Assembly (NCBI GenBank): GCA_049603795.1
Contig: JBMYSY010000011.1
Location: 920-64,919, forward strand
Direction of reading: 5' to 3'
Origin: Magnetovibrionaceae bacterium
GTDB lineage: Bacteria; Pseudomonadota; Alphaproteobacteria; Rhodospirillales; JBMYSY01
Length of the DNA stretch: 64,000 nucleotides
Part shown: one piece after another, positions 1,389 to 26,310 of the stretch
Numbering within the stretch: position 1 is the stretch's first letter
How the letters are laid out: every line of letters begins with the position of its first letter
The notes under the pieces: model-generated
Databases searched by the model: none
What the model was told of the DNA's origin: nothing
What the model saw: only the letters and a program-made list of their open reading frames with translations
Program-made: the position numbers and the translations under genes

Positions 1389-1579
1389 GCCCTGGCGTGC
1401 AGGGCCGGTTGGGATAACACGATAGGCACCCTGGCGGACCTTTCCGCCCGTAGCAGCCAGCGTTAAGATGATCGCGGTGATTCTGTTCGCAGAGCCACCG
1501 CGATTTTTTTTGATCCAAACCCGTGCACGCCGGGGGCCTGTCCGTTCCGTGCCGCATTTTTTTGGGGTGTGCTTCTCTC

Positions 1580-8606: not shown

Positions 8607-9314
8607 TCAGGCGGAGGCGGAGACCCGCGCTTCAGCCGCTTCCGGGTCGCGCAGGACGTAGCCCCGACCCCAGACGGTCTCAATGTAGTTCTCGCCTTCG
8701 GTGGCTTCGGTCAGCTTTTTGCGCAGCTTGCAGATGAAGACATCGATAATCTTCAATTCCGGCTCATCCATGCCGCCGTAGAGGTGGTTCAGGAACATTT
8801 CCTTGGTCAGCGTCGTACCTTTGCGCAGGCTCAACAGCTCCAGGATGCCGTATTCCTTGCCGGTCAGGTGGACCGAGCTTCCCTCGACCTCAACGGTGCG
8901 GGCGTCCAGGTTCACGGTCAGTTTGCCCGTTCGGATCACCGACTGGGCATGACCCTGGGACCGGCGAACAATCGCCTGAATACGGGCCAGCAGTTCCGCC
9001 TTGTTGAACGGCTTGGTGATGTAGTCGTCGGCACCGTGGCCGAGACCTTTCACCTTGTTGTCGGCCTCGGTCAGGCCCGACAGGATCAGAACCGGTGTCT
9101 GAATCCTTGAATCCCGAAGGCGGCGTAGAACCTCCATGCCGTCGATGTCCGGCAGCATCAAGTCCAGAATGATGATGTCATAGTCGTAAAGCTTGCCGAT
9201 CTCGAGCCCATCTTCCCCGAGATCGGTGGTATCAACCACCATGTTTTCCGACTTCAGCATCATCTCGACGCTTTGCCGGGTGGCGGGATCATCTTCGATG
9301 AGTAATACTCGCAC
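8607..9314 (-). CDS. ctrA: Cell-cycle/motility response regulator CtrA (OmpR family)
   Basis: It starts MRVLLIEDD (GTG start). Long stretches appear identical to Caulobacter CtrA as I remember it: [51 protein letters not shown] and [13 protein letters not shown]. Confidence 0.93.
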
Positions 9315-9330
9315 GGTCCTAACTCCAAAC

Positions 9331-9521
9331 GAATCGACTTGTCCAAAAACTTAGTCAAGTCTTAAGCATTTGTTAACCATAATTTACGTATTTTGGCACG
9401 GCGTTGTTTTCTAAGGATTATTTGAATCGCTCGATTCGTCTCAGATTCATGTAAGGACTCGCAAGTGGTTCATTTTTGCCCCCGATTCGCAAAAATAAGG
9501 CCCCGATTCGTTTGGCGATTC
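9331..9521. promoter_or_regulatory. Cluster of eight GANTC (CcrM-type methylation) sites, including four CGATTCG heptamers
   Basis: GANTC sites start at 9331, 9424, 9433, 9444, 9456, 9484, 9505 and 9517. CGATTCG starts at 9432, 9483, 9504 and 9516. The palindrome GAATCGCTCGATTC spans 9424-9437. Confidence 0.6.
9362..9380. promoter_or_regulatory. Canonical CtrA box TTAA-N7-TTAAC (TTAAGCATTTGTTAACCAT)
   Basis: TTAA lies at 9362-9365, a 7-nt spacer follows, and TTAA lies at 9373-9376. The second half extends to TTAACCAT, the extended CtrA half-site. The box sits 48-62 nt upstream of the ctrA GTG, in the ctrA-fliI divergent region. Confidence 0.6.
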
Positions 9522-9562
9522 GGTTTACCTTTAATTTGACCGCTTCAAAGAAGGATCCAGCC

Positions 9563-10963
9563 TTGGCTCTTCATGTCTCAAGCATCCTGAACGACATTGA
9601 ACGTATTGCGGATAAGCGAGTCGAAGGGCGCGTTTCCGCTGTCGTTGGGCTGATGGTCGAAGTGGCGGGCGTTGATGGGGTGCTGTCGATCGGTGATCAG
9701 TGTGTGATCCATGGACGCCATGGCGGACGGGTGGTTTGCGAATGCGTCGGGTTCCAGCGCGGCAAGGCGCTTTTGATGCCCTTTGGCTCCCTTGACGGCA
9801 TCGGGATCGGCTGCAAGGCGGAGGTTGGCCTGCAGGAACCCACGATTTCCCCCGACCACGGCTGGCTGGGCCGCGTCGTCAACGCCTTCGGTGATCCGAT
9901 TGACGGGCTGGGCCCTCTGCCGGCGGGTCGCCTCGCCTATCCCATCAAGGCGACGCCTCCATCCGCGCATGCTCGCCAGAGGGTTGGCGGCAAGGTCGAT
10001 CTGGGGGTTCGGGCGATGAACACTTTTCTGACCTGCTGCAAGGGCCAGCGGCTCGGCATCTTCGCCGGATCAGGCGTCGGCAAGTCGACGCTGCTGTCGA
10101 TGATGGCCCGTCACACGGATGCCGAAATCAACGTCATTGGCCTGATCGGTGAACGAGGGCGGGAAGCGCGGGAGTTCATCGAGGATAACCTGGGCCCGGA
10201 AGGGCTCGCGCGTTCCATCGTCATTGTGGCCACGGGGGATGAACCGCCGCTGATGCGCCGCCAGGCGGCCTATCTGACGCTCTCCGTCGCTGAATACTTC
10301 CGGGATCAGGGACACGACGTGCTCTGCATGATGGACAGCGTGACGCGCTTCGCCATGGCCCAGCGGGAAATCTCGCTCAGCGTGGGTGAGCCCCCGGCCT
10401 CGAAGGGCTATACGCCAAGCGTCTTCGCCGAACTACCGAGACTTCTTGAACGTGCCGGGCCGGGGCCGGAGGGGTCGGGCAACATCACGGGCCTGTTTAC
10501 CGTGCTCGTCGAGGGCGACGATCACAACGAGCCGATTTCGGATGCGGTACGTGGCATTCTGGACGGTCACGTCGTATTGGATCGCGACATCGCGGAGCGG
10601 GGGCGGTATCCGGCCATCAACGTTCTGCGCTCGATCAGCCGGACCATGCCGGGCTGCAATACGCCCGAACAGAACGAAGTGGTCAGCCGGGCCCGCCGCC
10701 TGATGGCGACCTATGACAACATGGCGGAATTGATCCGGCTGGGGGCCTATCGCGCGGGCTCCGATCCGGCGGTGGATGAATCGATCCAGTTCAATGCGGG
10801 CCTTGAGAGCTTCTTAACCCAATCGTCCGATGATCCTACAGGTCTCGATGCCGGATATGCCCTTCTCGCAGGTGTACTCGGCATGCCGGCCCCGCCGCCT
10901 CAACAGGTGGCGCAACAGGTGGCAGGGCCAGCTCAAGCGATGGATTTCGGCGAAGAAAGTTGA
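9563..10963 (+). CDS. fliI: Flagellum-specific ATPase FliI
   Basis: It has Walker A GSGVGKST, Walker B-like VLCMMDSVTRFA, and the F1/FliI-type body. The maximal ORF starts at TTG 9476. TTG 9563, preceded by AAGGA, gives a typical 466-aa FliI and leaves the GANTC array non-coding. The start remains uncertain. Confidence 0.9.
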   Translation: MALHVSSILNDIERIADKRVEGRVSAVVGLMVEVAGVDGVLSIGDQCVIHGRHGGRVVCECVGFQRGKALLMPFGSLDGIGIGCKAEVGLQEPTISPDHGWLGRVVNAFGDPIDGLGPLPAGRLAYPIKATPPSAHARQRVGGKVDLGVRAMNTFLTCCKGQRLGIFAGSGVGKSTLLSMMARHTDAEINVIGLIGERGREAREFIEDNLGPEGLARSIVIVATGDEPPLMRRQAAYLTLSVAEYFRDQGHDVLCMMDSVTRFAMAQREISLSVGEPPASKGYTPSVFAELPRLLERAGPGPEGSGNITGLFTVLVEGDDHNEPISDAVRGILDGHVVLDRDIAERGRYPAINVLRSISRTMPGCNTPEQNEVVSRARRLMATYDNMAELIRLGAYRAGSDPAVDESIQFNAGLESFLTQSSDDPTGLDAGYALLAGVLGMPAPPPQQVAQQVAGPAQAMDFGEES

Positions 10964-10980
10964 AGGGGAGGGACTAGGGC

Positions 10981-11409
10981 GTGGCGTCAGACTTGAAGAA
11001 CCTGATCAAACTCGCGGAATGGCGGGTGGACGAGAAGCGCCGCCGGTTGGGCGATTTTCTGCGCATGCTCGACGACCTCCATGATCGGGCACGCCGCCTG
11101 GAACAGGAAATGGTCCGCGAACAGGCGGAAGCGCTTCATGCCCCTACCGAGGCGGGTCTGTTTTACGGCACCTATGCCAACCAGGTGATCGCGCGGCGCG
11201 AGCGCATCCAGGAAACCATCCGCATGACCGAGGCCGAGGTCGATAAGGCCCGGGAAGAGCTGGCCGAAGAATTTCGGGACCTGAAGAAGTACGAACTCGC
11301 CCAGGCCGCCCGCGATGAGAAAGAAGCCCTCGAACAATCCCGCCGCGAACAGGCCTTCCTGGACGAACTCGGCATGCAGGCCCATCGGCGGAAGGCCGGT
11401 GGGTATTGA
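10981..11409 (+). CDS. fliJ: Flagellar export chaperone FliJ-like coiled-coil protein
   Basis: This 142-aa, charged, all-helical protein lies immediately downstream of fliI (GTG start). The position and composition are typical of alphaproteobacterial FliJ. Confidence 0.65.
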   Translation: MASDLKNLIKLAEWRVDEKRRRLGDFLRMLDDLHDRARRLEQEMVREQAEALHAPTEAGLFYGTYANQVIARRERIQETIRMTEAEVDKAREELAEEFRDLKKYELAQAARDEKEALEQSRREQAFLDELGMQAHRRKAGGY

Positions 11410-11497
11410 CGTCCGAGAAGAGTTTCACTACTTTTTGATGTGCAGAAAGGATTTTGCGATCAAAAGTGTTTGTTGACTTGATGAAGAGGTCCCGGAA

Positions 11498-12040
11498 ATG
11501 TCCACTACCTCAACTCGTTTCGAGCGGGCAACCAAATCGAACGGGCTTCTCGAGACCTTGTTGGACCGGTGGCGTGGGCAGTGCGAGACGTATAATGAGG
11601 ATTTTGATGACTATTCCCCAGAGCATATGAAGCATGCCCTGGAGATTGCAGCAGAGAATCCACCAGATCAGCGATACGGCATATATGTTTTGAACGATGG
11701 GGGAGAGTTTTTTGGTCTGTCTCACTTCAATCGCGCTCAGGTGAAGCGTACGACAGGCTGGACACTCAGGATTCACTGGACGTTGATGGCACCCCGCTTC
11801 GACTTCGAAGAGCAAAGTTTGGAAGATATTGCCGGAGTCACTGCGGATGTGCTCTACGCGGCTATCAAGGTTGCGGAAACCGAGTTGCCATGTGATCACA
11901 TCAAGTTTCATCTCAGCGGCATACCTGATCGACGGTACCTTTATGGCGTTGCTACTGGCCTTAAAATCGGAAGAATTTTTGGTGACGTCGAATACAGTGG
12001 TAACTGGCTGACACTCTCCGATTTGAATACAGGGCCTTGA
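11498..12040 (+). CDS. Hypothetical protein (orphan, lower-GC islet)
   Basis: The 180-aa ORF has a GAGG RBS. Its GC is visibly lower (about 49 percent by eye) than the flanks. No family was recognised. Confidence 0.55.
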   Translation: MSTTSTRFERATKSNGLLETLLDRWRGQCETYNEDFDDYSPEHMKHALEIAAENPPDQRYGIYVLNDGGEFFGLSHFNRAQVKRTTGWTLRIHWTLMAPRFDFEEQSLEDIAGVTADVLYAAIKVAETELPCDHIKFHLSGIPDRRYLYGVATGLKIGRIFGDVEYSGNWLTLSDLNTGP

Positions 12041-12185
12041 AACGACCGCATTTGCGAACTACAAAGTGTCAAGAGGAACGTTAATCTTTTGCATCTTATG
12101 ATCGAATAACGGACGATTGTGCCGCTAAAACTGCTAATAAACGGCCCCTATAGAAGGGCTGCAGCGACCGTGGGAGCCCGACACC

Positions 12186-13232: not shown

Positions 13233-13664
13233 GCCTTCCAGCTTCGCCGATAAAAACGCCCGCAGATCCACGACCTCTTTGTGGACCAATGAGACATAGA
13301 CCAGGTTCATGTTGGTCCGCTCCCGGACCATCTCACCGGTGAACGGCAGGTAGCTGAGCGCGCCCCGGCCGAATGAGGGTGAGGCGCTGCCAACCTGCCA
13401 TTCGGTCGAGAGTTGCACATCTACCAGCTTTAGCGATTCATCACCCTCGTTCTCGCCCGCGATCTCGAACGGAATGTTGGCGAGCCGCAGGTAGGCCATC
13501 TTGTCGGCGGCCTGGACGAAGCCGTCGATGAACTGGGCGGTCAGTACCTGCAACTCAGCCGCCCGGTCCGGCTCCTCCATGTGGCTGAGCAGATGGTCGC
13601 CGGTGTAGTGGTTGTGATGATGGTGGTGGTGAGTAGACCCGTGTTTCACGCCGTCATGTGGCAT
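13227..13664 (-). CDS. His-rich small protein (N-terminal HGSTHHHHHHNHYTGDH), function unknown; candidate metallochaperone
   Basis: The 145-aa ORF has a start that overlaps the stop of the upstream arginase-fold gene by 11 nt. Its N-terminus carries a His6 run plus 5 more His. The remainder matches no family I recognise. Confidence 0.65.
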   Translation of the reverse strand: MPHDGVKHGSTHHHHHHNHYTGDHLLSHMEEPDRAAELQVLTAQFIDGFVQAADKMAYLRLANIPFEIAGENEGDESLKLVDVQLSTEWQVGSASPSFGRGALSYLPFTGEMVRERTNMNLVYVSLVHKEVVDLRAFLSAKLEGL

Positions 13665-14901
13665 TGGACCAGCGCTCCCCTTCGAATTCGCCCGCCGGAA
13701 TGCGCACCGGCTTGTCGATCAGGCCCTTGTGGGCACCGAGCTTGCCGTTGGCGACCATGGAACCCAGCACGTCGACGACGATCCGCGTGCCCATCAGGGC
13801 GGTGATGTCGGACTGGTCATAGGGCGGGGAGATTTCCACCACTTCGATGCCGCAGATCCCTTCAGCGGCGACGGTGGATGCGATGGCCAGCGCCTCGCGC
13901 GGCAGGAAGCCGCCCGGTTCCGGCCAGCCTGTGCCGGGCACGAAGCCGCAGTCGATGCTGTCGATGTCAAAGGACATGTAGACCATATCGACGCCGTCCC
14001 AGGCCATCTCGAGGGCCATCTCGGCGACCTTGGCGGTGCCCAGCTGTTCCACGTCCGACATGGTGATGATGTTGGTCTCGCGTTCGCGCGCGACGGCCAC
14101 GGCTTCGCGGGGGACCTGCCAGCCGCCGATGCCGATCTGCACTAGGTTCTTGGCCGGTACGTTCGGCAGATTGGTGGCGTGGAACCAGGGTGTGGTGTGC
14201 ATGCGCTCGTCCAGGTCTTTTTCCTGGATGTCCGCATGGCGGTCAAAGTGGATGATGCCGATCTTCTTCGATGTACATTCGGCGAGACCCCGCACGGTGG
14301 GAAAGCCGATGGAGTGGTCACCACCGATGATGATTGGCAGCGAGCCTGTCGAGAAGACATGAGAGCAGGCGCGGCTGATCTGGTCGAAAGTCTTTTCGAT
14401 GTTGCCGGGGATGGTGAAGACATCGCCCGCATCGCAGAGCGTCATTTGCTCGCGCAGGTCCACCGACATTTCGTAGTTGTACGGCGTATAGAGCGCGGAG
14501 ATCCGCCGCACGGCCTGGGGACCGAAGCGGGTGCCGGGGCGGTAAGTGGTCCCACCGTCAAAGGGCACGCCCAGGACGGTGGCATCATACTTCGCCACTT
14601 CGGCCACATCTTCGGTGTAGGGTGCCTTCAGGAAGGTGTTGATGCCGGCATAGTGCGGCAGTTCGCCACGGGCGAAGGTCGGGATGGATTTGTCGTCCAG
14701 GCTGTCAGAGCCGGTAAGGCCCATCTTGAGCGCCCAGGCACGCTCTTTCTCCCATTCGCCACCGGGTAGGTTGGCTTCGTCCTGCATCGCCTTCCAGCCG
14801 CGCAACTTGCGCAGGTCCGGGTGGTGGTAGCGTCGCTCTCGTTCCCGGTTATCCGATTGATGGCGCGCGGTCGTGCGCTCAAACGGTTGGAAGAGTGTCA
14901 T
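13654..14901 (-). CDS. Arginase/agmatinase/ureohydrolase-family hydrolase (candidate guanidine hydrolase)
   Basis: It carries the metal-ligand blocks of the arginase fold: IIGGDHSIGF, HFDRHADI, SFDIDSIDCGF and EVVEISPPYD. It is 415 aa. Its start overlaps the ABC ATPase stop. Confidence 0.9.
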   Translation of the reverse strand: MTLFQPFERTTARHQSDNRERERRYHHPDLRKLRGWKAMQDEANLPGGEWEKERAWALKMGLTGSDSLDDKSIPTFARGELPHYAGINTFLKAPYTEDVAEVAKYDATVLGVPFDGGTTYRPGTRFGPQAVRRISALYTPYNYEMSVDLREQMTLCDAGDVFTIPGNIEKTFDQISRACSHVFSTGSLPIIIGGDHSIGFPTVRGLAECTSKKIGIIHFDRHADIQEKDLDERMHTTPWFHATNLPNVPAKNLVQIGIGGWQVPREAVAVARERETNIITMSDVEQLGTAKVAEMALEMAWDGVDMVYMSFDIDSIDCGFVPGTGWPEPGGFLPREALAIASTVAAEGICGIEVVEISPPYDQSDITALMGTRIVVDVLGSMVANGKLGAHKGLIDKPVRIPAGEFEGERWSNAT

Positions 14902-15649
14902 AGGTTTCCTCGCTTATTTGAAAGGGGATGCCGCCGTCGCGGGCATCGAAGTCATAGGTCACGGTAGCCCCGTAGGCGGCCGGGTCGTGTTCGTCCCAAC
15001 GCGGCTTGTCGAAAACCAGGACCCGGTCGCCGAGCTTGAAGCCCTCGGACAGGTCGTGCGTTACCATAAAGACGGTCATGGGTGATTCTGCGCGAAGTTC
15101 TGTGAGGAAATCGTGCATCTGAATCCTTGTGCCGGGGTCCAGCGCCCCGAAGGGCTCGTCGAGCAGCAGAATGCGCGGCTTCGCCATCAAGGCCTGACCG
15201 ATGGCGAGGCGCTGCTGCATGCCGCCGGATAAAGCCGACGGATAGGCCTTGGCCACATGCGACAGGCCGATGCGGTCCAAAACGACATCGGCCTCTTCGC
15301 TGGCCGCCCGTTTGGCCGGGCCGAACAAACGACCGAGGGGGCCAGTGGAAAACTCCTTCGCCGCGATCAGGTTGCCCTTGACGGTCAAGTGCGGAAACAC
15401 GGAATAGCGCTGGAAAACCACGCCCCGGTCCTGGCCGGGCTCCGTGGCGGGTTCGTTCCCGTCGATGCGGATTTCGCCCCTGGTCGGCGTTTCCTGGGCC
15501 AGCAGCATGCGGAGGAAAGTGGATTTGCCGCAGCCAGAGGCCCCGACGATGGAAACGAAGCTGCCCTCGTCCACATCCAGATTGACCCGTTCCAGGATCG
15601 GTCGGTTGTCGTAGTCCTTAAAGACGCCGCGTACGCTGACAAGGCTCAT
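14879..15649 (-). CDS. ABC transporter ATP-binding protein (NitT/TauT-type)
   Basis: It has Walker A GASGCGKST, the signature LSGGMQQRLAIG, and Walker B LLLDEPFGALD. It overlaps the permease stop by 4 nt. Confidence 0.92.
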   Translation of the reverse strand: MSLVSVRGVFKDYDNRPILERVNLDVDEGSFVSIVGASGCGKSTFLRMLLAQETPTRGEIRIDGNEPATEPGQDRGVVFQRYSVFPHLTVKGNLIAAKEFSTGPLGRLFGPAKRAASEEADVVLDRIGLSHVAKAYPSALSGGMQQRLAIGQALMAKPRILLLDEPFGALDPGTRIQMHDFLTELRAESPMTVFMVTHDLSEGFKLGDRVLVFDKPRWDEHDPAAYGATVTYDFDARDGGIPFQISEETYDTLPTV

Positions 15650-16458
15650 AGCGAGGCTCCTGCCCAGGGGAACAGTCGTTTGGACAACCGGTTCAGCAGC
15701 CAGTCGATGACGAAGGCCAGTGCGGTGATCCAGACGACGTAGTTCAGGATGATGTCCATGGCGAGATATCGCCGAACCAGGAAGATGCGATACCCGAGAC
15801 CGGAATCGGAGGCAATCGCCTCGGAGGCGATGAGGAACAGCCAGGCCGGCCCCAGCGACAGCCGTACGGCCTGTATAAGCCTCGGCAGGACCTGGGGAAG
15901 AGCGACGCGGAGCGCGATTACAAGGCTGGTTGCACCGAGCGTCTGGGCCTTCACGATCTGCTCGGTCGGTATTTCCCTCGTCCTTTGGGCCATGTCCCGG
16001 ATGAGAAACGGCGTTATGCCGATGGCAATCAGCGCGATCTTAGAGATCTCGCCCAAGCCGAATATGATGAAAAGAATGGGTAGAATGGCCAGCGGCGGCA
16101 CCATCGACAGGACCGCTATGAAACCGGCCAGGGTCGCACTGACGAAGGGCAGCAGGCCGATGGCGAGACCCAACCCTAGGCCAATGACCGCTGCCACACC
16201 AACGCCCACGGCCAGGCGTTGCAGGCTGATCACCGTGTCATTCCAGAACAGAATTTCGCCTGAGCGCCGGTCGGGCTGACTGATCAGCCGGGTGGCGGTG
16301 TCAACGATCTGGGCCGGGCTCGGCAGCAGTTTGTCGTTTGGATTGTCTGCACGGCGAATGTCGGATGCGACCGCATAAGCGATCAGCACCGCGAGGAAGG
16401 GCAACACTAAAAGTGCCAGCGCCACCCCTTTCTTCGGTGTTCGATTTATCAGTCGCAT
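15646..16458 (-). CDS. ABC transporter permease (NitT/TauT-type)
   Basis: It is a 270-aa polytopic membrane protein in the BPD_transp_1 style. It sits between the binding-protein and ATPase genes. Confidence 0.9.
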   Translation of the reverse strand: MRLINRTPKKGVALALLVLPFLAVLIAYAVASDIRRADNPNDKLLPSPAQIVDTATRLISQPDRRSGEILFWNDTVISLQRLAVGVGVAAVIGLGLGLAIGLLPFVSATLAGFIAVLSMVPPLAILPILFIIFGLGEISKIALIAIGITPFLIRDMAQRTREIPTEQIVKAQTLGATSLVIALRVALPQVLPRLIQAVRLSLGPAWLFLIASEAIASDSGLGYRIFLVRRYLAMDIILNYVVWITALAFVIDWLLNRLSKRLFPWAGASL

Positions 16459-16488
16459 CCGATTCTATCCCGCACTTGTGGTTGAACC

Positions 16489-17607
16489 TCAGAGTTCGCC
16501 TGCGACAGCCATTTCCATGTAGGAGGTATCAAACCGCAGCTTGACGTTGTTGGCGTCACCCGTGACAGAGCCATCCGGATAGGACACACCGACGAAGTCC
16601 GGGCTCGGCGCGCCTTCGCCCAGGATGCCCTTCTCGAACAGGAAGTTGGCAACGCTGACCATGGTCGCTGGCAGGGTCGGGTTCTTCACAAAGCCGACGG
16701 CGTGCTGGGGCGTGTAGAACATCTGAGTGGAGGCCAGTTGGGAGTCATAGCCTGCCAGATCGGTCCCCGAAGCTTCGGCCATCGCGGTACGGGCTGCAGC
16801 ACCTTCAGGGCTGTTGCTGGCCATGATGCCCATCAGTTCGTACCAGGCACCGACCAGGGCCTTGCCGAAGTTCGGGTTGGCGGCCAGGGTTTCGGTGTTG
16901 ACCACCATCATGTCGATGATCTCGCCCGGAATGTCGGAACTGTCAAAAAGCTTGGTCGTGCCCGGCGTTTCCAGAATCGTGGAAACCAGCGGGTTCCAGG
17001 TGACGACAGCTTCCACCTCGTCCGTACCGAAGACGGCGATCATGTCGGCGTCCGAGGTGTTGATGACCTTGGCGAGGTCGGCCTCGCTCAGGCCCACGGT
17101 ATCCAGGCCGCGCGCCAGCAGGTAGTGGGAAACAGAAAGCTCCACCAGATTGACCGGTTTGCCCTTCAGGCTGGCGAGGTCGCCTTCGCCCTTCAGGATA
17201 ATCGCGTCGTTGCCGTTGGAATAGTCGCCCACGATCAGTGCCGTCGTATCGATCCCACCGGCAGATGGGATGGAAAGGGTGTCCATGTTCGTGGCGCTGA
17301 CGCCGTCGAACTGGCCTGCCGTGTAAAGGTTGATGGATTCGACGTAGTCGTTGATCTGAACGATCTCGACGTCGATGCCGTATTTTTCGGCCCATTTGTC
17401 CATGATGCCGCTGGTCTCAAGATAGCCCCAGGGCATCCAGCCCACATAGATCGACCAGGCGACCTTGAAGGAGGTCTTCTCCTGGGCAACCACAGGGGCT
17501 GGCGCGGTGGCAAGTCCGAGGCAGAGGGCGGCGGCGGCCAAGGCCGACGTCAGATTTTTCTTCAGCGCCGAAAGAGGGGCGGCGAGCGTTTTAAGCGATT
17601 GAGTCAT
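16489..17607 (-). CDS. ABC transporter periplasmic substrate-binding protein (NMT1/NitT/TauT-like)
   Basis: ATG 17607 is preceded by GGGAGA. The signal peptide is MTQSLKTLAAPLSALKKNLTSALAAAALCLGLATAPAPVVAQ. The longer six-frame ORF (to 17793) runs through the riboswitch and is rejected. Confidence 0.88.
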   Translation of the reverse strand: MTQSLKTLAAPLSALKKNLTSALAAAALCLGLATAPAPVVAQEKTSFKVAWSIYVGWMPWGYLETSGIMDKWAEKYGIDVEIVQINDYVESINLYTAGQFDGVSATNMDTLSIPSAGGIDTTALIVGDYSNGNDAIILKGEGDLASLKGKPVNLVELSVSHYLLARGLDTVGLSEADLAKVINTSDADMIAVFGTDEVEAVVTWNPLVSTILETPGTTKLFDSSDIPGEIIDMMVVNTETLAANPNFGKALVGAWYELMGIMASNSPEGAAARTAMAEASGTDLAGYDSQLASTQMFYTPQHAVGFVKNPTLPATMVSVANFLFEKGILGEGAPSPDFVGVSYPDGSVTGDANNVKLRFDTSYMEMAVAGEL

Positions 17608-17699
17608 GAAGTCGGTCTCCCGCTTTGTCGTCCCGCCAAACAAGGGTGACGGACCGCCGGCGGAACAAAAGAGAAAAGGGGGGCGGAGGCGGCCCGACG

Positions 17700-17835
17700 C
17701 AGTTCTCTCCCGGGATTTTGTCCCGCCGTGTACCGCCCGGAATCTGCCGAAGCGGCGGCGTCTCTCGGACCAGTCTTTTCCCATTCCACCCATCAGGAGG
17801 AGGGCGGGAAAACGGAACCCTAGACGCCCTGCACC
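17700..17835 (-). promoter_or_regulatory. Guanidine-I riboswitch (ykkC-yxkD motif, subtype 1)
   Basis: The minus-strand RNA reads GGCGUCUAGGGUUCCG..CUGGUCCGAGAGACGCC..GGUACACGGCGGGACAAAAUCCCGGGAGAG. All three invariant ykkC blocks are present, with a closing P1 helix (GGCGUC/GACGCC). It lies about 95 nt upstream of the binding-protein ATG. Confidence 0.88.
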
Positions 17836-18162: not shown

Positions 18163-18699
18163 ATGATTGGACGTACCCTTCCCCAAGTCACCTTCCGGAC
18201 CCGCGTGCGCGATGAAAGCATCGAAGGCCCGAACCCCTTCCGGTGGGAAGACAAGACCACCGACGACTACTTCAAGGGCAAGCGCGTTGTCCTGTTCAGC
18301 CTGCCGGGTGCCTTCACGCCGACCTGTTCCACCTATCAGCTGCCGGACTTTGAGAAGCTCTTCCCGGATTTCCAAGCCAAAGGCATCGACGCCATCTACT
18401 GCCTGTCGGTGAACGACGCCTTCGTGATGAACGCCTGGGGCAAGGGCCAGGGCCTGGAAAACGTTGGTCTGATCCCGGACGGCTCCGGCGAGTTCACCCG
18501 CAAAATGGGCATGCTCGTTTGTAAGGATAACCTTGGCTTCGGTATGCGCTCCTGGCGCTATGCGGCTATCGTCAACGATGGCGTTGTCGAAGGCTGGTTC
18601 GAAGAGCCGGGCTACGAAGACAACTGCGAATCCGACCCTTATGGCGAATCCTCTCCGCAGAACCTGCTGGAGAAGCTGGACGCCTTGAAAGCGGCCTAA
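18163..18699 (+). CDS. Peroxiredoxin (Prx5/PrxD-type, AhpC/TSA family)
   Basis: It has the LFSLPGAFTPTCS peroxidatic Cys motif. The 178-aa body is typical of Prx5-like peroxiredoxins. Confidence 0.92.
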   Translation: MIGRTLPQVTFRTRVRDESIEGPNPFRWEDKTTDDYFKGKRVVLFSLPGAFTPTCSTYQLPDFEKLFPDFQAKGIDAIYCLSVNDAFVMNAWGKGQGLENVGLIPDGSGEFTRKMGMLVCKDNLGFGMRSWRYAAIVNDGVVEGWFEEPGYEDNCESDPYGESSPQNLLEKLDALKAA

Positions 18700-18738: not shown

Positions 18739-19143
18739 TTACACCCGGCGGATCCGGCCCAACAGATGCCGGTTGTCCCAGCGCGGCTGGCGGTCCTCAA
18801 GAATCACTTGGTAAGCAGGCCCGCTTTCGTCTGCCTGAGCCTCAGTCAAGATGATCTGAAGCCAGCGCGGCACGAGTTCATTATTCAAGTCGTCGCGGAT
18901 TAAAACAGCTATTTCTTCCAAATTGCTCTGTGGAGGTCTTAAGCTGCTCAGCATAGTATCGAAACTTTTAAGCCAGTATTTTACAGAATAAATATCGAGA
19001 ATGAGCTTGTCCGGTACGTACCATAAATCGACTGAGCGCTGGCCTATCTTGAGGTCTCTGAAGGTGACGATATAGTCTTTTTGTATTTCCGGATTGGGCT
19101 TAGTTTCGAGCCGTTCCCGTCTTTGCAACGCGTCCTCAATCAT
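18739..19143 (-). CDS. QueF-like T-fold protein lacking the catalytic Cys (function unknown), low GC
   Basis: WYVPDKLILDIYSVKYWLKSF and LEEIAVLIRDDL resemble the QueF signature (YIPD..[9 protein letters not shown].SF .. HE..). The position of the CPxTGQPD Cys reads DLKIGQRS. It overlaps the upstream gene by ATGA. GC is about 40 percent by eye. Confidence 0.45.
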   Translation of the reverse strand: MIEDALQRRERLETKPNPEIQKDYIVTFRDLKIGQRSVDLWYVPDKLILDIYSVKYWLKSFDTMLSSLRPPQSNLEEIAVLIRDDLNNELVPRWLQIILTEAQADESGPAYQVILEDRQPRWDNRHLLGRIRRV

Positions 19144-20858
19144 ACCGTCAGCCCCTCGCCTGGTCGCCGCAGTCGTTCTCCCTGCGACCGAACTTCGATA
19201 AAGCCCGGCGGTTGGGCCTGGAACAGTACGCCACCCTCGATCCCCGTGATCTCGCCCGCTTCGCGGAAGATCTCGCGGATGTGGTCGCGCATGCGCCCCG
19301 GCAGCGGTGCATCGGAGCGGATGATCAGGTCCAGCTGTTGGATTTCGCCTCGCTTCTTGACCATGCCATCGAGTTGCAGGTGACCGAGCTTGGTCATCTC
19401 CAGATCGACAACAAAGCGTGTTCCTTCGTCTCCCTTGTTGCCCTCTTCGTCTTCCTCGCCACCGAAGTTGCGGGTGTGGAAGCGGACCTGGCTCAGCTCC
19501 TCGCCGTTCATGACCGGAACGGCCACCGTCCGCCAGTCCCCCTCGCGGGACTCTTCCGAGCCCGTCTTCAGGCGCTGGAAGTCCCGATCCAGCCGTCCTG
19601 CGATTGTCGGGTTCAGCCGTGTCAGGCGGTCAAGGCCCTCGCCCAGAAGCGCCCGCATGTCGCCACCACGCAGGACGCTCATGAACAACAGCATTCCGGC
19701 CCCCAGTGCGGTGCCGTCGGCGCGCGGCAGGGCGCGGGCGACCTGTTGGAAGGCTTGGGGGTCCGCTGACTCCAGGGTCTTCAAGGCAGTGCGAAGGGCC
19801 GGCCATTCCCGTTGCAGATTGGCGAGCTCTGCCTCGGCGAAGGTGGCGGGCAGGGTCAAGGGGGCCGGGCCGGTCGGGCTTGTGCTGACCTTGAGTTGAA
19901 GGCTGCTGCCCACCTCCAACCCGGCGGCCTTGGCTGTTCCCAGAACCAGGCCCCGTGCTTCCAGGATGGCGCTGCCGTCCGGGGTGAGGCCGGTGACCCG
20001 GGCCGTGATCAGACCGCCCGGTGCAAGTTGGCCCGGTGCCGCCGTCGGTTGGGTGGCGAGGGCACCGCCGGCACCGCCGCCTGGGGCCTCTACCTTGATG
20101 ACCTGGGCGGAGAACTGACTTCCCGCTGGGACCGGCACACCGCGGCTGCCCGCCTGGGGGGCCTGGCCTTGCGCGTTCCCGGACTGCCCCTGCCGGAGGG
20201 AAGGGCCTGCGGATTGGGCTGTCGAGGGTTTGCCGGGAACTGGTGCCGTGCTTTGCTGGGTCTGTCCGTTGGAAGAGCTGGCCGTTGAAACTCCCGCCGG
20301 ACCGGACGAGGCGGCCAGAGGGGAGGCACCTTGGCCGGTTGCTGATGGGATCGTTCCCGTTTGCCCGGCCAAAGGAGCACCTTGTCCAGAAAATGGGCGC
20401 AGCACGGTAAGCCCAACGGTCTGGCCGGCGTTGAAGGTCGGTGATCCACCGGGTGCTGTCTGGGCGGCCCCTGCCTGCAGGCCGCCTTGGCTCAAGGCTC
20501 CGGTCAACTTGGGCCCGCCGGCCTGGAGACCGGCCAATTGTCCCGGCTCAGGTGGTTTACCATTGATTTTCAGGATGGCGAGCTGCAGCTGGTTGCCGGC
20601 GCGGGTGACCTGAAGCTGCAGGGCTGTCTGTTGGGGCAGGGTAAGTCCGGTAGCCAGTTGCGCAGGGCCGAGGGGGGTCTGGATTGAGGTTTGGCCATTG
20701 GCCGAATTGCCGAGGATTGTCGCCGTCAGTTGGGCCGCGAGGGGCAGTTTGGCCAGCGCCGGGGGCGGGTTCGCCACCAGGACCACCGGCTGTGTCGCTT
20801 TCGCGGTCGGCGGCGGCGCAGGTGATTGGACGATCGGCGGCGGGACCTGGGTGCTCAT
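19140..20858 (-). CDS. Pro/Gly/Gln/Ala-rich protein with C-terminal FliK-like (Flg_hook-type) domain
   Basis: It is a 572-aa protein with a low-complexity N-terminal two thirds. The C-terminal FVVDLEMTKLGHLQLDGMVKK..LDLIIRSD..IREIFREAGEITG follows the hook-length-control C-domain pattern. It is the last-but-one gene of the flhA-flhF-flhG operon. Confidence 0.5.
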   Translation of the reverse strand: MSTQVPPPIVQSPAPPPTAKATQPVVLVANPPPALAKLPLAAQLTATILGNSANGQTSIQTPLGPAQLATGLTLPQQTALQLQVTRAGNQLQLAILKINGKPPEPGQLAGLQAGGPKLTGALSQGGLQAGAAQTAPGGSPTFNAGQTVGLTVLRPFSGQGAPLAGQTGTIPSATGQGASPLAASSGPAGVSTASSSNGQTQQSTAPVPGKPSTAQSAGPSLRQGQSGNAQGQAPQAGSRGVPVPAGSQFSAQVIKVEAPGGGAGGALATQPTAAPGQLAPGGLITARVTGLTPDGSAILEARGLVLGTAKAAGLEVGSSLQLKVSTSPTGPAPLTLPATFAEAELANLQREWPALRTALKTLESADPQAFQQVARALPRADGTALGAGMLLFMSVLRGGDMRALLGEGLDRLTRLNPTIAGRLDRDFQRLKTGSEESREGDWRTVAVPVMNGEELSQVRFHTRNFGGEEDEEGNKGDEGTRFVVDLEMTKLGHLQLDGMVKKRGEIQQLDLIIRSDAPLPGRMRDHIREIFREAGEITGIEGGVLFQAQPPGFIEVRSQGERLRRPGEGLTV

Positions 20859-20908: not shown

Positions 20909-21703
20909 TCAATCGGGCTCCGACGTCAGCAGCTTGGCGATGGCTTCGACGTCGCTGGCGGCCTCGGCATTGGGGTAGCGGGTCAGGATCGGTGCCTGAT
21001 TGCGGATCGAATCCGGCACCTTGGTGTCACGGCGCACAATGCCCAAAAGCGTCGGTTTGAATTTCAGGAAACCCTCGCAGGCCTTCTTCAGCGTGTTGAA
21101 GGTCTTTTCGCCTTCCTTGACTGAATTGGCCATGTTGACCACGACCCGGATGTCCGTGCCGGGGCGCTCCATGCGCGTCAGCTTGATGAAGGCGTAGGCA
21201 TCGGTTAGCGATGTCGGCTCGTCGGTGACCAGCACGATGCAGGTATTGGCGAGGCCGGTCAGCTGCATGACGTTCTTTTCGACCCCGGCACCTGCGTCGA
21301 TGATCACATGATCATAGCCGGTCGCCAGCAGGCCCAATTCTTCGCCCAGGACGGTCAAACGGGAGGGGGCCACGTTCGCAAGGCCGCCGGACCCAGAGCG
21401 CCCGGCAACCACGTCAAAGCCCCCGTCTTCAAAGTGATCGACGGACTTGTCCAATTGGATGCGGCCCGCGATGACGCTGCCTAGGTCATGCTTCGGCATC
21501 AGGCCCAATTGGATGTCCAGGTTGGCCAAACCGAGGTCACCATCGAACAACAGCGTCTTGGCCCCCAGTTTTGTCAGGCATTGGGCGAGCGTGATCGAAA
21601 ACCAGGTCTTCCCCACGCCTCCCTTGCCGGAGGCTACGGCGAAGATGTTGCGGCCTTTGAGGCGGGCGGTGGGCGAGGGCGCAAAGGGTTTGGCGGTCGT
21701 CAT
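20909..21703 (-). CDS. flhG: MinD/ParA-family flagellar number/placement ATPase FlhG (FleN)
   Basis: It carries the deviant Walker A ASGKGGVGKT and has MinD-like architecture. It overlaps the flhF stop by 4 nt. Confidence 0.85.
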   Translation of the reverse strand: MTTAKPFAPSPTARLKGRNIFAVASGKGGVGKTWFSITLAQCLTKLGAKTLLFDGDLGLANLDIQLGLMPKHDLGSVIAGRIQLDKSVDHFEDGGFDVVAGRSGSGGLANVAPSRLTVLGEELGLLATGYDHVIIDAGAGVEKNVMQLTGLANTCIVLVTDEPTSLTDAYAFIKLTRMERPGTDIRVVVNMANSVKEGEKTFNTLKKACEGFLKFKPTLLGIVRRDTKVPDSIRNQAPILTRYPNAEAASDVEAIAKLLTSEPD

Positions 21704-22689
21704 GAGACGGCTTGGCTCCTGAAGAGGTATTCCGATGGTTTATCGGCTGCATGGGGCATAATCAATCGGGCAAGCGAGGCCGGGTTCACTTGGGCGAGGC
21801 CGTCTGCGATGTGCGGGCTTGTGCTGACATCCGAAAAGGCCAATCCGGCGGCATCTGCCGCTGCCAGCATGCCGCCGATCCGGCGCGCGAGGTCAAGCCT
21901 TGTCACGATCAGCCGCTCGGCCCCGAGCTGTCGGAAGGCCAGCGCCATATCGGCCATTTCGAAGGCGTCCGAACCCGCCGCGAGCACGAGAACCGGCTCG
22001 GCATGGCTCAACCGGATCAGATCGGCCAGGCTGTCCACTTCGGCTTCCGAATAGGGGTTTGTGCCGGGGCTGTCGATAAAACAAAAGTCCGCGCCATAGG
22101 CGTCGCGTACCGCATCTTCGAGCTCCTTGCCGGTTTCGGCAACGCCCAGGTCGGCTTTCAGGATACGGGTGAAGGCTTCCAACTGTTCGACGCCACCTGC
22201 GCGTTTGGTGTCCGTCGTGATGGCCTTGACGGTCTTGCCCTGCAACCCGGCCCGGGCGCAAAGCTTCGCGGTGACGATGGTCTTTCCGGCACACGGCGGT
22301 CCAACCAGGATCAGCGGTCGGCCACTGCCGGCCTGGTCGAGCGGCGAGAACCGGTAGTGCTCATCCAGTGCGGAGGCCAGAGCCAGCGTCGCATCCGTGG
22401 CCGTCCCCTTGCCGGCGGTGCGTGCCAGCGCATCGGCGAGCGGTCCGGGGGTTCCGTGAAAGGACAGGGTCTGGCGGATGGCCTCGGTAACGTCATCCGG
22501 CTCGGCCTCGTTGGTTGCGGCAAAGACCACTTCGTCCTGGAAGGTGTCTTCCAGGGCGGCCGTGACCCGGGCACCTTGCCCGTCGGAGGCCTTCTGGGTC
22601 GAGACGATAATGGCATCGTCGCCCAGTTCCTCCCGCACCAGGTCCATCGCCTGGTTCATGGTGGCTGCCGTGTAGGTCTTCAGGCGCAA
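21700..22689 (-). CDS. flhF: Flagellar biosynthesis SRP-type GTPase FlhF
   Basis: TTG 22689 gives MRLKTYTAATMNQAMDLVREELGDDAIIV, a typical FlhF N-terminus. G motifs read GPPCAGKT, DSPG and TRLD. The six-frame ORF extends to 22707. Confidence 0.85.
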   Translation of the reverse strand: MRLKTYTAATMNQAMDLVREELGDDAIIVSTQKASDGQGARVTAALEDTFQDEVVFAATNEAEPDDVTEAIRQTLSFHGTPGPLADALARTAGKGTATDATLALASALDEHYRFSPLDQAGSGRPLILVGPPCAGKTIVTAKLCARAGLQGKTVKAITTDTKRAGGVEQLEAFTRILKADLGVAETGKELEDAVRDAYGADFCFIDSPGTNPYSEAEVDSLADLIRLSHAEPVLVLAAGSDAFEMADMALAFRQLGAERLIVTRLDLARRIGGMLAAADAAGLAFSDVSTSPHIADGLAQVNPASLARLIMPHAADKPSEYLFRSQAVS

Positions 22690-22768
22690 GGGGCTCTCTC
22701 CCTCCAAGCGGGGTTCACATCTAACGTACCGTCAAAATGTGGTATCGCCCAACCTAAAGGACAAAACG

Positions 22769-24907
22769 TTAAACTTGCCCTACCGTCTTGATGCGGGCCT
22801 TGGGGTAAACCTCGTTCTGGGAAATCACCATGGTCATGGGCCGGAAACGTTCGACGATCGAGCGGACAAAGGGCCGGATGGCGGGGCTGGTCAGCAGGAC
22901 AGGGTTTTCGCCCATCATGGCCTGGCGTTCGAAGGTGGTGCGCAGCGCGCCGATGAATTCCTGCAACTTGGTCGGCGGCATGGACAACTGTCGGTCGTCG
23001 CCCTGGCCGACCAGACTTTCGGCAAAGGCCTGTTCCCATTCCGGCGAGAGGGTGACCAGCGGGATGACACCCTGGTCATTGGTGCAGGCGTTGCTGATCT
23101 GGCGCGACAGCCGGGCGCGGACGTGTTCGGTGATCAGGAGCACATTGCGGGTGTGGCCCGTGGCTTCCTGAATACCCTCCATGATGGTCGGCAGGTCGCG
23201 GATCGAGATCCGCTCTGACAGCAGGTTCTGCAGGGTGCGCTGGACGCCGCCCATGGAGATCTGGGCCGGGATCATATCGGCGATCAGTTTCTGCTGTTCC
23301 TTGTCCAGGTCGTCCAGCAGCTTCTGGGTTTCGGCATAGGACAACAGTTCCGACATGTTGTCCTTGATCACTTCCGTCAGGTGCGTGGTGATCACGGTGG
23401 CCGGGTCGACAACCGTATAGCCGCGGAACAGGGCTTCTTCCCGGTTGGCTTCGTCGATCCACATGGCGGGCAGGCCAAAGGTCGGTTCGATGGTCTTCTC
23501 GCCCGGCAGGGTGATGTCTTCGCCGCGTGGGTCCATCACCAGCAGCATGTTTGGCCGGAGGTCGCCCCGGCCGGAATCGATCTCTTTCACCCGGACAACG
23601 TAGGAATTGGCCGGCAGCTGCATGTTGTCCTGGATGCGCACGCTGGGCATCACGAAGCCGATATCGGCTGCGATCTGGCGGCGCAGGGCCTTGATCTGAT
23701 CGGTCAGGCGCTGGCCATCGCGCGGACTGTTGATCAGCGACAGCAGGCCATAGCCCAATTCCAGCCGGATGTAGTCAATGCGCAACGCGGTCGAGATCGG
23801 CTCTTCGGCCACCTTGGGCGGCTCGACCGCCTGTTCGGCCATCTGCACCTGTCGTTCTTTCTCGCGGCGCTTGTTTTCCCGGTCCAACAGAAAGGCCCCG
23901 CCGCCTGCGACAATGCCCAGCAACAGGAAGGGGACAGCCGGAATGCCCGGAATGACCGCGAGAGAGATCAACAGGAAACAGCTGACGCCGAGGGCCTTAG
24001 GTTCACGCGTGAACTGGGCGAACAGCGCCTTTTCCGTAGCACCTTCGGTACCCGATTTGGTCACCATCATGCCGGCGGCGGTGGATACGATCAGCGCCGG
24101 GATCTGACTGACCAGGCCATCCCCGACGGTAAGCCGGGTATAGGTATCGGCGGCATCGATGAAGGCCATGTTGTTCTGGGCCATACCGATGATCATCCCG
24201 CCTAGGACATTGATCACCGTGATCAGCAGGCCCGCGATGGCGTCACCGCGTACGAACTTCGAAGCACCGTCCATGGACCCGAAGAAAGTGCTTTCGTCTT
24301 CCAGTTCCTTGCGTCGGTTCTTGGCCGTGTCTTCGTCGATCAGGCCCGCCGAGAGGTCGGCATCAATGGCCATCTGCTTGCCCGGCATGGCATCCAAAGA
24401 GAACCGGGCCGAGACTTCCGCGATCCGGCTGGAACCCTTGGTGATCACGATGAAGTTCACGATCACCAGAATGGCGAAGACGATGATCCCGATGACGAAG
24501 TTGCCGCCCATGATGAAGCCGCCGAAGGCCTCGATCACCTGGCCCGCCGCATCGGTTCCCGTATGTCCTTCGGCCAGGATCAGCCTTGTGGAGGCGAGGT
24601 TCAGGCTGAGCCGGATCATGGTGGCCAGCAGCAGAACCGTCGGGAAGGCACTGAACTGGAGGGGTTTTTCCAGAAACAGCGAGGTCATCAGGATCATCAC
24701 CGAAAAGGTGATCGAGAATGCCAGAAGCAGGTCCAGCATCCAGGTCGGCAGTGGCAGAATCAGCACCACCAGGATGGCGACCACGCCAAGGGCCAGCATG
24801 ATGTCGCCGCGCCCGAGCGCCCCCATCAGGCGCCCGCGCAGGCGGCTCATATCAACGCCGCCACCGCCGCCTTCGCCGCCTTCCGCTCCTGATCCCGCGT
24901 CAGCCAT
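22769..24907 (-). CDS. flhA: Flagellar export gate protein FlhA
   Basis: This 712-aa protein has an N-terminal 8-TM region (FSAFPTVLLLATMIRLSLN, FVRGDAIAG) and a cytoplasmic FlhA_C domain. Confidence 0.95.
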   Translation of the reverse strand: MADAGSGAEGGEGGGGGVDMSRLRGRLMGALGRGDIMLALGVVAILVVLILPLPTWMLDLLLAFSITFSVMILMTSLFLEKPLQFSAFPTVLLLATMIRLSLNLASTRLILAEGHTGTDAAGQVIEAFGGFIMGGNFVIGIIVFAILVIVNFIVITKGSSRIAEVSARFSLDAMPGKQMAIDADLSAGLIDEDTAKNRRKELEDESTFFGSMDGASKFVRGDAIAGLLITVINVLGGMIIGMAQNNMAFIDAADTYTRLTVGDGLVSQIPALIVSTAAGMMVTKSGTEGATEKALFAQFTREPKALGVSCFLLISLAVIPGIPAVPFLLLGIVAGGGAFLLDRENKRREKERQVQMAEQAVEPPKVAEEPISTALRIDYIRLELGYGLLSLINSPRDGQRLTDQIKALRRQIAADIGFVMPSVRIQDNMQLPANSYVVRVKEIDSGRGDLRPNMLLVMDPRGEDITLPGEKTIEPTFGLPAMWIDEANREEALFRGYTVVDPATVITTHLTEVIKDNMSELLSYAETQKLLDDLDKEQQKLIADMIPAQISMGGVQRTLQNLLSERISIRDLPTIMEGIQEATGHTRNVLLITEHVRARLSRQISNACTNDQGVIPLVTLSPEWEQAFAESLVGQGDDRQLSMPPTKLQEFIGALRTTFERQAMMGENPVLLTSPAIRPFVRSIVERFRPMTMVISQNEVYPKARIKTVGQV

Positions 24908-24945: not shown

Positions 24946-26310
24946 TCAAATGCCGCCGCCTTCACCGGGTTGCGGGACGGAAAAGCCTTCTTCGGAATAC
25001 TGCTTCAGCTTGTTGCGCAGGGTCCGGATCGAAATGCCAAGAATATTCGCGGCATGGGTCCGGTTGCCGAGGCAATGGCTCAGCGTGTCGATGATCAGCG
25101 CGCGCTCAACGTCCGAGACCGTCTGGCCGACCCATCCCACCGTGGGATCGCCGCTCGCCACCGCGGGCTGGGCTGCGGGACCTGCCGGTGTCGCCGGAGC
25201 CGGTGCGCCGGGCGCGCCGGAAAGCAGGATCGCCTCCGGCCCGATGGCTTCACCGGTGGCCAGCAGGACAGCGCGGTGCAGGGTGTTTTCCAACTCCCGC
25301 ACGTTACCGGGCCAGGGGTGGCTTTTCAGCAGCGCCAGCGCCTCGGGCGACAGGGGGCGAGGGGGCACCTTGTTCATTTCGGCGTACTTCTTGATGAAGT
25401 GGGCCGATAGCGGCGCGATGTCGTCGCGTCTTTCGCTCAAGGACGGCAGGTCCAGGTTGACCACGTTCAGCCGGAAATAGAGATCCCCCCGGAAGGTGCC
25501 TTTGGCGACTTCCTCTTCCAGGTTGCGGTTGGAGGTTGCGATCAGTCGCACATCCACCTTGACCGGCTTGTTGCTGCCGACGCGGTCGATTTCGCGTTCC
25601 TGGATGGCGCGCAGCAGCTTGGCCTGCAGGCGCACATCCATCTCGGAGATCTCGTCCAGCAGCAGCGTGCCGCCCGCGGCTTCCTCGAACTTGCCGATGC
25701 GGCGCGACACGGCTCCGGTGAAGGCACCTTTTTCATGGCCGAACAATTCGCTTTCCAGCAGGTTTTCGGGGATCGCCGCGCAGTTGACCGCGATAAAGGC
25801 CCTGCCCGCGCGCTTGGAATTGCGGTGGACGAAACGGGCCATGACCTCTTTACCCGTTCCGCTCGGACCCGTGATCAGAACGCTGGCCTCCGACGGTGCG
25901 ATCTGTTTGGCCAACGTCAGGGTTTGTTCCATGCGTCCGTCCTGGGCGACGAGCGCGTGGCTTTCTTCCGCGATGGCCGAGAGGACGGCGGCGATCAGGT
26001 CCGCATCGGGTGGCAGGGGCACGTATTCCTTGGCACCCGCCTTGATGGCGCGGACGGCGGCCTGGGCGTCGGTTCCGGTGCCGCAGGCGATGACGGGGAT
26101 GTGGATGTGCTCTTCTTCCAGGGCCTTGCAGAGCGTCGCCACGTCCTGGACCACGTCGATCATAACCAGATCGGCTCCGCGCCCGGCCCGGAGTTCCGCC
26201 AGCCCCTGGGCGATCTGATCGACCTGGGAAACCTTGGCCCCCCGGGACATGGCGATCTGGCTCGCCGCGCCCAGTTGTCCGCTTAAGATTCCGATGATCA
26301 ACAATCGCAT
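24946..26310 (-). CDS. Sigma54-dependent transcriptional activator with atypical receiver (FleQ/FlbD-type flagellar regulator)
   Basis: It has an AAA+ core (GPSGTGKE, GAFTGA, LLLDEI), a C-terminal Fis-type HTH, and a receiver-like N-terminus that lacks the acidic DD pair (MRLLIIGILSG). Confidence 0.88.
   Translation of the reverse strand: MRLLIIGILSGQLGAASQIAMSRGAKVSQVDQIAQGLAELRAGRGADLVMIDVVQDVATLCKALEEEHIHIPVIACGTGTDAQAAVRAIKAGAKEYVPLPPDADLIAAVLSAIAEESHALVAQDGRMEQTLTLAKQIAPSEASVLITGPSGTGKEVMARFVHRNSKRAGRAFIAVNCAAIPENLLESELFGHEKGAFTGAVSRRIGKFEEAAGGTLLLDEISEMDVRLQAKLLRAIQEREIDRVGSNKPVKVDVRLIATSNRNLEEEVAKGTFRGDLYFRLNVVNLDLPSLSERRDDIAPLSAHFIKKYAEMNKVPPRPLSPEALALLKSHPWPGNVRELENTLHRAVLLATGEAIGPEAILLSGAPGAPAPATPAGPAAQPAVASGDPTVGWVGQTVSDVERALIIDTLSHCLGNRTHAANILGISIRTLRNKLKQYSEEGFSVPQPGEGGGI

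Follow-up and report, generated by a model that had tools for sequence, protein, structure and literature searches.

A QueF-related T-fold protein encoded at the end of a flagellar operon in Rhodospirillales

Downstream of flhA, flhF and flhG in a Magnetovibrionaceae bacterium lies a short gene, hereafter called QueFL, whose product resembles QueF, the preQ0 reductase of the queuosine pathway. This raises the question of why a flagellar operon should end with a relative of a tRNA-modification enzyme, and whether that relative has kept the chemistry of QueF. An earlier note on this DNA had proposed some answers, which are considered below together with the results that bear on them. Hereafter, the window denotes the whole stretch of DNA analysed (64,000 nt of contig JBMYSY010000011.1), and X denotes the gene immediately upstream of QueFL.

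In the window, a string of genes runs from an flbD-like activator through flhA, flhF, flhG and X to QueFL, all of them on the minus strand. Its components and the start signals of QueFL are the following.

24946 to 26310, minus strand: flbD-like sigma-54 activator, the first gene of the string
22769 to 24907, minus strand: flhA, identified by a tblastn match to FlhA homologues with the FHIPEP domain
21700 to 22707, minus strand: flhF, SRP-type GTPase
20909 to 21703, minus strand: flhG, MinD/ParA-type ATPase with a short N-terminus devoid of a DQAxxLR motif
19140 to 20858, minus strand: X, 572 residues; the N-terminal half is rich in Pro, Ala and Gln, and ~220 C-terminal residues form a conserved domain
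18739 to 19143, minus strand: QueFL, 134 residues, ATG start, acidic (pI 5.5), no Cys
19140 to 19143, minus strand: ATGA overlap between the X stop (TGA, 19142-19140) and the QueFL start (ATG, 19143-19141)
19152 to 19157, minus strand: GAGGGG, a Shine-Dalgarno-like box read from the sequence, 8 nt before the QueFL ATG and within the end of X

The flhF and flhG genes overlap by 4 nt, and gaps of 61 and 50 nt separate flhA from flhF and flhG from X, respectively. The next gene after QueFL (18163-18699) codes for a peroxiredoxin and is convergent. The common strand, the short gaps and the convergent neighbour agree with the description of QueFL in the earlier note as the last cistron after flhA, flhF, flhG and X, and the ATGA overlap with the upstream stop codon that it pointed out can be read directly from the sequence. 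The QueFL ORF is real. A terminator scan found none 3' of QueFL, and a search for the sigma-54 promoter consensus gave matches below chance level, none of them upstream of X. Among public sequencing runs, the QueFL sequence was present in three DNA runs of seawater metagenomes and in 0 RNA runs.

Distribution and genetic environment of the QueFL family

A word-indexed protein search yielded 30 relatives of QueFL, and an exhaustive profile search collected 560 representatives at 50% identity. Of these, 422 have E values of 1e-10 or lower, i.e., the family comprises at least 422 clusters at 50% identity. Neither Pfam nor NCBIfam holds a model specific to it.

We scanned loci using one genome per species, which gave 57 QueFL loci. 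Nearly all belong to Rhodospirillales, with many Azospirillum and also Pacificispira, Caenispirillum, Hwanghaeella, Roseospira and metagenome-assembled genomes (MAGs). Flagellar neighbours, called by tblastn with the flagellar proteins of the window, are present at 50 of the 57 loci, and flhG is found upstream on the same strand at 41 of the 48 loci for which at least 3.5 kb of upstream sequence is available. The recurrence of homologues downstream of flagellar genes, which the earlier note had raised, is borne out by these counts. The usual gene order is flbD-flhA-flhF-flhG-X-QueFL, and independent metagenome contigs with precomputed Pfam labels display the same order. Convergent to this string, fliJ-fliI and a gene for an OmpR-type regulator are often found. 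In the RefSeq record of Azospirillum lipoferum 4B, the corresponding string reads fliN-motA-sigma54 activator-flhA-GTPase-MinD/ParA-hypothetical-hypothetical, the last two genes being X (WP_014188891) and QueFL (WP_014188890), both annotated as "hypothetical protein". QueFL is an old, conserved and probably vertically inherited last cistron after flhA-flhF-flhG(-X) in Rhodospirillales. A search of the accessible literature retrieved no paper that links QueF-like proteins to flhF or to flagellar clusters.

Of the 43 loci with X, 27 have the 4-nt overlap between X and QueFL, and most of the remaining gaps do not exceed 39 nt. At 10 loci, QueFL follows flhG directly and no X is found within 10 kb, and X can therefore not be an obligatory adjacent partner of QueFL. 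One 816-residue protein (P0146) combines, in a single ORF, an X-like sequence with a C-terminal QueFL domain (residues 690-814); it may be a Rosetta-stone fusion, or else a product of read-through or an assembly artefact.

The X protein itself has no match in Pfam, NCBIfam or PHROG, and a search of the PDB with an X profile returned a chance-level match to PulS alone. The earlier note had called this upstream gene FliK-like. The profile collections lend no weight to that label, and the structural comparison gives a faint indication in its favour. A model of X built from a 3-sequence alignment is poor (pLDDT 45.9); its C-terminal unit, in this low-confidence model, has a strand-strand-strand-helix-strand arrangement, and the highest-probability Foldseek match is the domain by which the needle ruler PscP switches substrate specificity (5cuk, E 0.18, probability 0.82). 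This is a hint from modelling that X may be a ruler of the FliK/YscP type.

Two QueFL loci come from MAG records with Bacteroidota names, namely L028 (CP051228.1, 'Mesoflavibacter sp.') and L030 ('uncultured Flavobacteriaceae'). Their clusters have the flbD-flhA-flhF-flhG-X-QueFL order of Rhodospirillales and are nearly collinear with that of Pacificispira (L027), and these MAGs are probably mislabelled or mis-binned. At three loci, a gene for a J-domain (DnaJ) protein of 412-448 residues directly follows QueFL (L036, 5704-6765; L055, 10421-11656; L057, 10269-11612). In Roseospira goensis, the pair formed by QueFL and the J-domain protein is distant from flagellar genes.

Fold and conserved residues

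The QueFL protein of the window matches the Pfam QueF signature PF14489 with an E value of 2.4e-5 (24.9 bits, below the cut-off of 27.3) and TIGR03139 with an E value of 1.8e-6 (27.8 bits, below the cut-off of 86.9). A phmmer search of the PDB with the single protein gave no match. A profile of 28 relatives retrieved Bacillus subtilis QueF from the same database (E 8e-5), followed by weak matches to archaeal QueF-Like and thereafter to GTP cyclohydrolase I. The AlphaFold model of QueFL, computed as a monomer, is confident (pLDDT 89.9) and has the beta-beta-alpha-alpha-beta-beta topology of a T-fold. With this model, the top Foldseek match is QueF (4f8b, E 9.4e-8, TM 0.69); FolE, QueF-L and FolB rank next, all with E values below 1e-3. 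The resemblance of QueFL to QueF and to T-fold proteins is beyond chance, and the QueF-type T-fold that the earlier note had proposed is upheld by both the Foldseek and the PDB profile results. The best explanation is that QueFL descends from a unimodular QueF and has kept the T-fold.

The features that define QueF are the thioimide-forming nucleophile Cys55, the proton donor Asp62, the substrate anchor Glu97 and the NADPH-binding QueF motif (PMC5372742). QueFL contains no Cys, and an alignment of 85 relatives has no conserved Cys column. With respect to the family profile, the SLCPKTGQPD loop of QueF, which carries Cys55 and Asp62, is an insertion; in QueFL, a tight hairpin leads from strand 1 to strand 2, and the loop of the proton donor is missing. 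The absence of the catalytic Cys had been noticed before and attributed to a replacement by Asp. The absence stands and the substitution does not, the Cys55 loop being deleted. In place of the NADPH motif E(S/L)K(S/A)hK(L/Y)(Y/F/W), which includes Glu78, QueFL has DIYSVKYW, and the corresponding positions 50-56 vary across the family, with only the final aromatic residue kept. Similarly, the earlier statement that the conserved Glu is replaced holds for Glu78, and not for Glu97, which has a counterpart in E76 that had gone unnoticed. This residue and the two family signatures are located as follows.

18916 to 18918, minus strand: codon of E76, a residue found without exception in 85 relatives and aligned with the substrate anchor Glu97 of QueF
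18862 to 18894, minus strand: DDLNNELVPRW, codons 84-94, signature of the family, running from the end of helix 2 into the start of strand 3
18778 to 18798, minus strand: EDRQPRW, codons 116-122, second signature of the family, where strand 4 ends

Having lost both the loop with Cys55 and Asp62 and the NADPH motif, QueFL is incapable of nitrile reduction and, in agreement with the earlier note, cannot act as a preQ0 reductase. Nevertheless, E76 is aligned with the residue that was mutated in 5UDG (E97Q), and the retention of the substrate-anchoring Glu suggests that a ligand pocket may survive in QueFL. In QueF, Glu97 is dispensable for the fold and its loss has a 280-fold effect on the Km for preQ0 (PMC5372742).

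Eight residues are invariant in the 85 sequences: E76, then D85, N88, E89 and V91 within the DDLNNELVPRW signature, and D117, P120 and W122 within EDRQPRW. Those 85 sequences are only 30-48% identical to the QueFL protein of the window. At the level of sequence, this pattern shows strong purifying selection on two polar motifs. The family is acidic, with a median pI of 5.15. An invariant E76 together with many invariant polar residues would fit a pure scaffold no better than a ligand pocket or an active site.

The closest known relatives are the unimodular QueF proteins (YkvM, EC 1.7.1.13; structures 4F8B, 4FGC and 5UDG), which likewise consist of a single T-fold of similar size and provide the best match to QueFL in both profile and structure searches. 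The two groups have in common a YVPD motif that closes strand 2 and, in helix 2, the anchoring Glu at its start and a D-L-x-E-L-x-P-R-aromatic motif at its end. Unlike QueF, QueFL is devoid of the Cys55/Asp62 loop, does not conserve the Glu78 motif, scores below the cut-offs of the QueF signatures and is found in a flagellar rather than a queuosine context. Archaeal QueF-Like (archaeosine synthase, 5JYX and 5K0P; Foldseek E ~2e-4) is a precedent for a QueF derivative that has lost the NADPH chemistry and taken on a new role. Its substrate is preQ0-tRNA and its catalytic Cys and Asp are retained (PMC5485725), whereas QueFL is an acidic, bacterial protein devoid of both residues. FolE and FolB have in common with QueFL the fold and the principle of a Glu anchor (Foldseek E from 1.5e-5 to 1e-3). 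However, QueFL lacks their zinc-binding and catalytic residues, and the sequence similarity is not significant (E > 1). QueFL is best placed in the QueF branch of the T-fold superfamily, as a variant without reductase function that has become fixed in a flagellar operon.

Possible roles of QueFL at the flagellar locus

The reading that we favour, with a probability of about 0.5, is that QueFL is a repurposed, non-reductase T-fold protein that serves as an accessory to the polar flagellum and is produced together with X. Translation of QueFL would be coupled to that of X, providing the two proteins in a fixed proportion, and QueFL would probably assemble as a T-fold oligomer. In the T-fold superfamily, such oligomers are rings around a beta-barrel tunnel, with the pocket between subunits. 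QueFL looks cytoplasmic and has no hydrophobic segment on inspection of its sequence; it would act through protein-protein contacts, possibly as a partner or a chaperone-like regulator of the proline-rich X. Alternatively, its partner might be the FlhF/FlhG/export-gate machinery. Either choice of partner would allow QueFL to influence flagellar assembly, through the control of hook length or of flagellar number. The patch formed by DDLNNELVPRW and EDRQPxW would be the likely surface of interaction or oligomerisation.

Two types of proteins invite comparison with QueFL in such an accessory role. The chaperones of type III and flagellar export systems are small acidic proteins encoded beside their clients; QueFL has ~130 residues and a pI of ~5, and its gene directly follows, and is coupled to, that of a proline-rich and possibly secreted protein. 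Unlike these chaperones, QueFL is a T-fold protein, and ten lineages have no adjacent client; chaperone structures are absent from the Foldseek matches of QueFL. The fipA gene of gammaproteobacteria (PMC11620751) resembles QueFL in being a small, lineage-restricted gene located just downstream of flhF-flhG. Unlike FipA, QueFL is a T-fold protein without a hydrophobic segment, and there is no apparent homology between the two. FipA is a membrane protein, from a family different from that of QueFL.

The FlhG proteins of these operons have short N-termini. About 15-25 residues precede the P-loop in FlhG of the window (20909-21703) and of nine other loci (L003, L007, L009, L010, L019, L022, L039, L050 and L058). 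In a preprint, DQAxxLR is described as the motif by which Vibrio FlhG activates the FlhF GTPase (bioRxiv 10.1101/2022.03.19.484964). This motif is absent from FlhG of the window and of the nine loci, and a similar motif was also sought in X and in QueFL and is absent from both. Speculatively, an FlhG with a short N-terminus and without DQAxxLR leaves room for another modulator of FlhF.

The main alternative, tentative and rather unlikely, is that QueFL still binds a small molecule, either to sense it or to convert it by a new chemistry, and is coupled to the control of flagellar number or placement by FlhF and FlhG. E76 would then bind a ligand of the 2-amino-4-oxo-pyrimidine type, with guanine, GTP/GDP, preQ0/preQ1 and pterin as candidates. 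The invariance of E76 and the marked effect of its QueF counterpart on the Km for preQ0 without any requirement for folding speak for this alternative, as do the YVPD motif on strand 2 in common with QueF and nine further invariant or nearly invariant polar residues, reminiscent of an active site. So do the presence of QueFL after flhF-flhG even at loci devoid of X, and the absence of the FlhF-activating motif from FlhG in this clade. Against it, the QueF loop that closes the pocket has been deleted, the NADPH motif is gone, queuosine or pterin genes are not recurrent in the vicinity, and the secondary structure of the model would place the invariant patch at the end of helix 2 opposite to E76.

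We consider it unlikely that a QueF-derived T-fold ring represents a new component of flagellar biogenesis, either as a metabolite or nucleotide sensor that regulates FlhF/FlhG or as the first dedicated partner of a FliK-type ruler. If the sensor version were true, a pocket of the guanine/7-deazaguanine type, marked by the invariant Glu, would have been retained. If flagellar, QueFL would link a T-fold protein to flagella for the first time, and the scaffold of a queuosine-pathway enzyme, involved in tRNA modification, would have been repurposed after loss of its catalytic loop. QueFL may also explain the control of FlhF/FlhG or of hook length in alphaproteobacteria whose FlhG lacks the activator motif. 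X and QueFL are two conserved genes annotated without a function in flagellar clusters, which count among the best-annotated bacterial loci, including those of plant-growth-promoting Azospirillum.

At 7 of the 57 loci, QueFL is found in non-flagellar contexts, where its neighbours include genes for an Mrp antiporter, a phasin, acyl-CoA dehydrogenases, MnmA and a J-domain protein adjoining yacG/RNase G. These unrelated neighbours would fit a housekeeping role with no relation to flagella, the position after flhG being the outcome of historical hitch-hiking. This explanation is distinctly improbable, since rearrangements on both sides have left the position unchanged across families of Rhodospirillales, the coupling to X has been conserved as well, and some of the apparent exceptions (L057) still adjoin fliJ-fliI.

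The low-GC segment of this copy and other features of the window

The composition of the window copy sets it apart. Over the whole gene, its GC content is 49.4% and its GC3 58.5%, in comparison with GC3 values of 74-82% for neighbouring genes and a GC content of 61% for the window. The deviation is concentrated in one segment.

18874 to 19098, minus strand: compositionally foreign segment, codons 16-90, ~225 bp, GC 41.3%, GC3 49.3%

The GC content of about 40% given in the earlier note is thus accurate for this segment and too low for the gene as a whole. In the other 53 genes of the window, 3,043 coding stretches of equal length were compared, and codons 16-90 have a lower GC content than any of them. 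At all other loci, the GC content of QueFL lies within -0.05 to +0.07 of that of the locus. Across the 57 loci, the GC content of the segment homologous to codons 16-90 follows that of the locus (r = 0.95, residual SD 0.025). The value for the window, 0.413, compares with an expected 0.605 (z = -7.7), whereas codons 91-134 are on the trend (0.636 vs 0.644 expected, z = -0.2). The 3' boundary of the foreign segment coincides with the invariant DDLNNELVPRW motif, and the GC trend across loci points to a source genome of ~45% GC.

The sequence of the window is reproduced, for the same organism, in independent assemblies of three seawater samples, which makes an assembly chimera unlikely. The contigs of the three seawater runs contain no variant QueFL alleles and give no clue to the origin of the patch. 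In a segment-wise identity search for a donor, both segments have the same closest relative (P0002), and the sampled sequences include no low-GC donor. An Rfam scan of the AT-rich segment gave no match inside QueFL. Judging from composition, codons 16-90 are most likely a recombination patch that stems from the allele of a relative of ~45% GC, and the crossover would lie at DDLNNELVPRW, the most conserved stretch of QueFL. The sharply bounded patch would provide an example of intragenic allele replacement with a crossover at the most conserved motif.

It is very unlikely that the low GC content reflects decay instead, i.e., that the window copy has lost its function under relaxed selection and AT-biased mutation. 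In favour of decay, the low GC and GC3 values are confined to this copy, two nearly invariant positions deviate in it (W57, usually Y, and Y111, usually H), and a guanidine-utilisation island has broken its ancestral adjacency to fliJ-fliI. However, the reading frame is intact, all eight fully invariant residues are present, the Shine-Dalgarno box and the ATGA coupling are retained and the structural model is confident. Decay is less likely because the invariant residues, the frame and the coupling signals are all intact, and the sharp boundary at codon 90 followed by a native 3' third fits recombination rather than uniform decay. The suggestion that QueFL is a recently acquired pseudo-enzyme, a selfish or defence-related passenger of the operon, draws on the low GC content of this copy and is hardly credible, as homologues of 30-48% identity stand at this place in the operon in at least 50 species, the gene has the GC content of its host at every other locus, and the 3' third of the window copy is native in composition, with no PADLOC or PHROG matches and no integrase, transposase or other mobile-element neighbours.

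The two other stretches of lowest GC content in the window (45-49%) are at 9041-9351 and 11401-12071. The former spans the 5' end of a response-regulator gene (8607-9314) and the start of the intergenic region between the regulator and fliI, and the latter lies just after fliJ, at the edge of an inserted block. A guanidine-I riboswitch (17705-17834, minus strand; Rfam RF00442, 82 bits, E 1.3e-14) precedes genes at 13654-17700 (minus strand) for an ABC transporter, with an NMT1-like binding protein, a permease and an ATPase, and for an agmatinase-like ORF. This riboswitch and transporter block of ~7 kb, together with the peroxiredoxin gene, separates QueFL of the window from fliJ-fliI, to which it is adjacent in most related genomes.

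The response regulator at 8607-9314 (minus strand) is of the OmpR type and adjoins fliI-fliJ (9476-11409, plus strand). With the OmpR-type regulator of L003 as a query, identities of 68-91% were found at most of the fetched loci, and of 72% with the window copy. The window also codes for an HPTransfase (ChpT-like) protein (1523-2227, plus strand) and a DUF1153 (SciP-like) protein (32106-32393, minus strand); together with the regulator, they look like the CtrA motility-control module of alphaproteobacteria. A FliH-like ORF (27612-29063, minus strand) is called with 483 residues, compared with 286 at the same position in L007, and residues 117-206 alone match the Pfam FliH model. Finally, a protein with TPR and GT41 (O-GlcNAc-transferase-like) domains (33194-34996, plus strand) adjoins the flagellar cluster and is a candidate flagellin-modifying enzyme.
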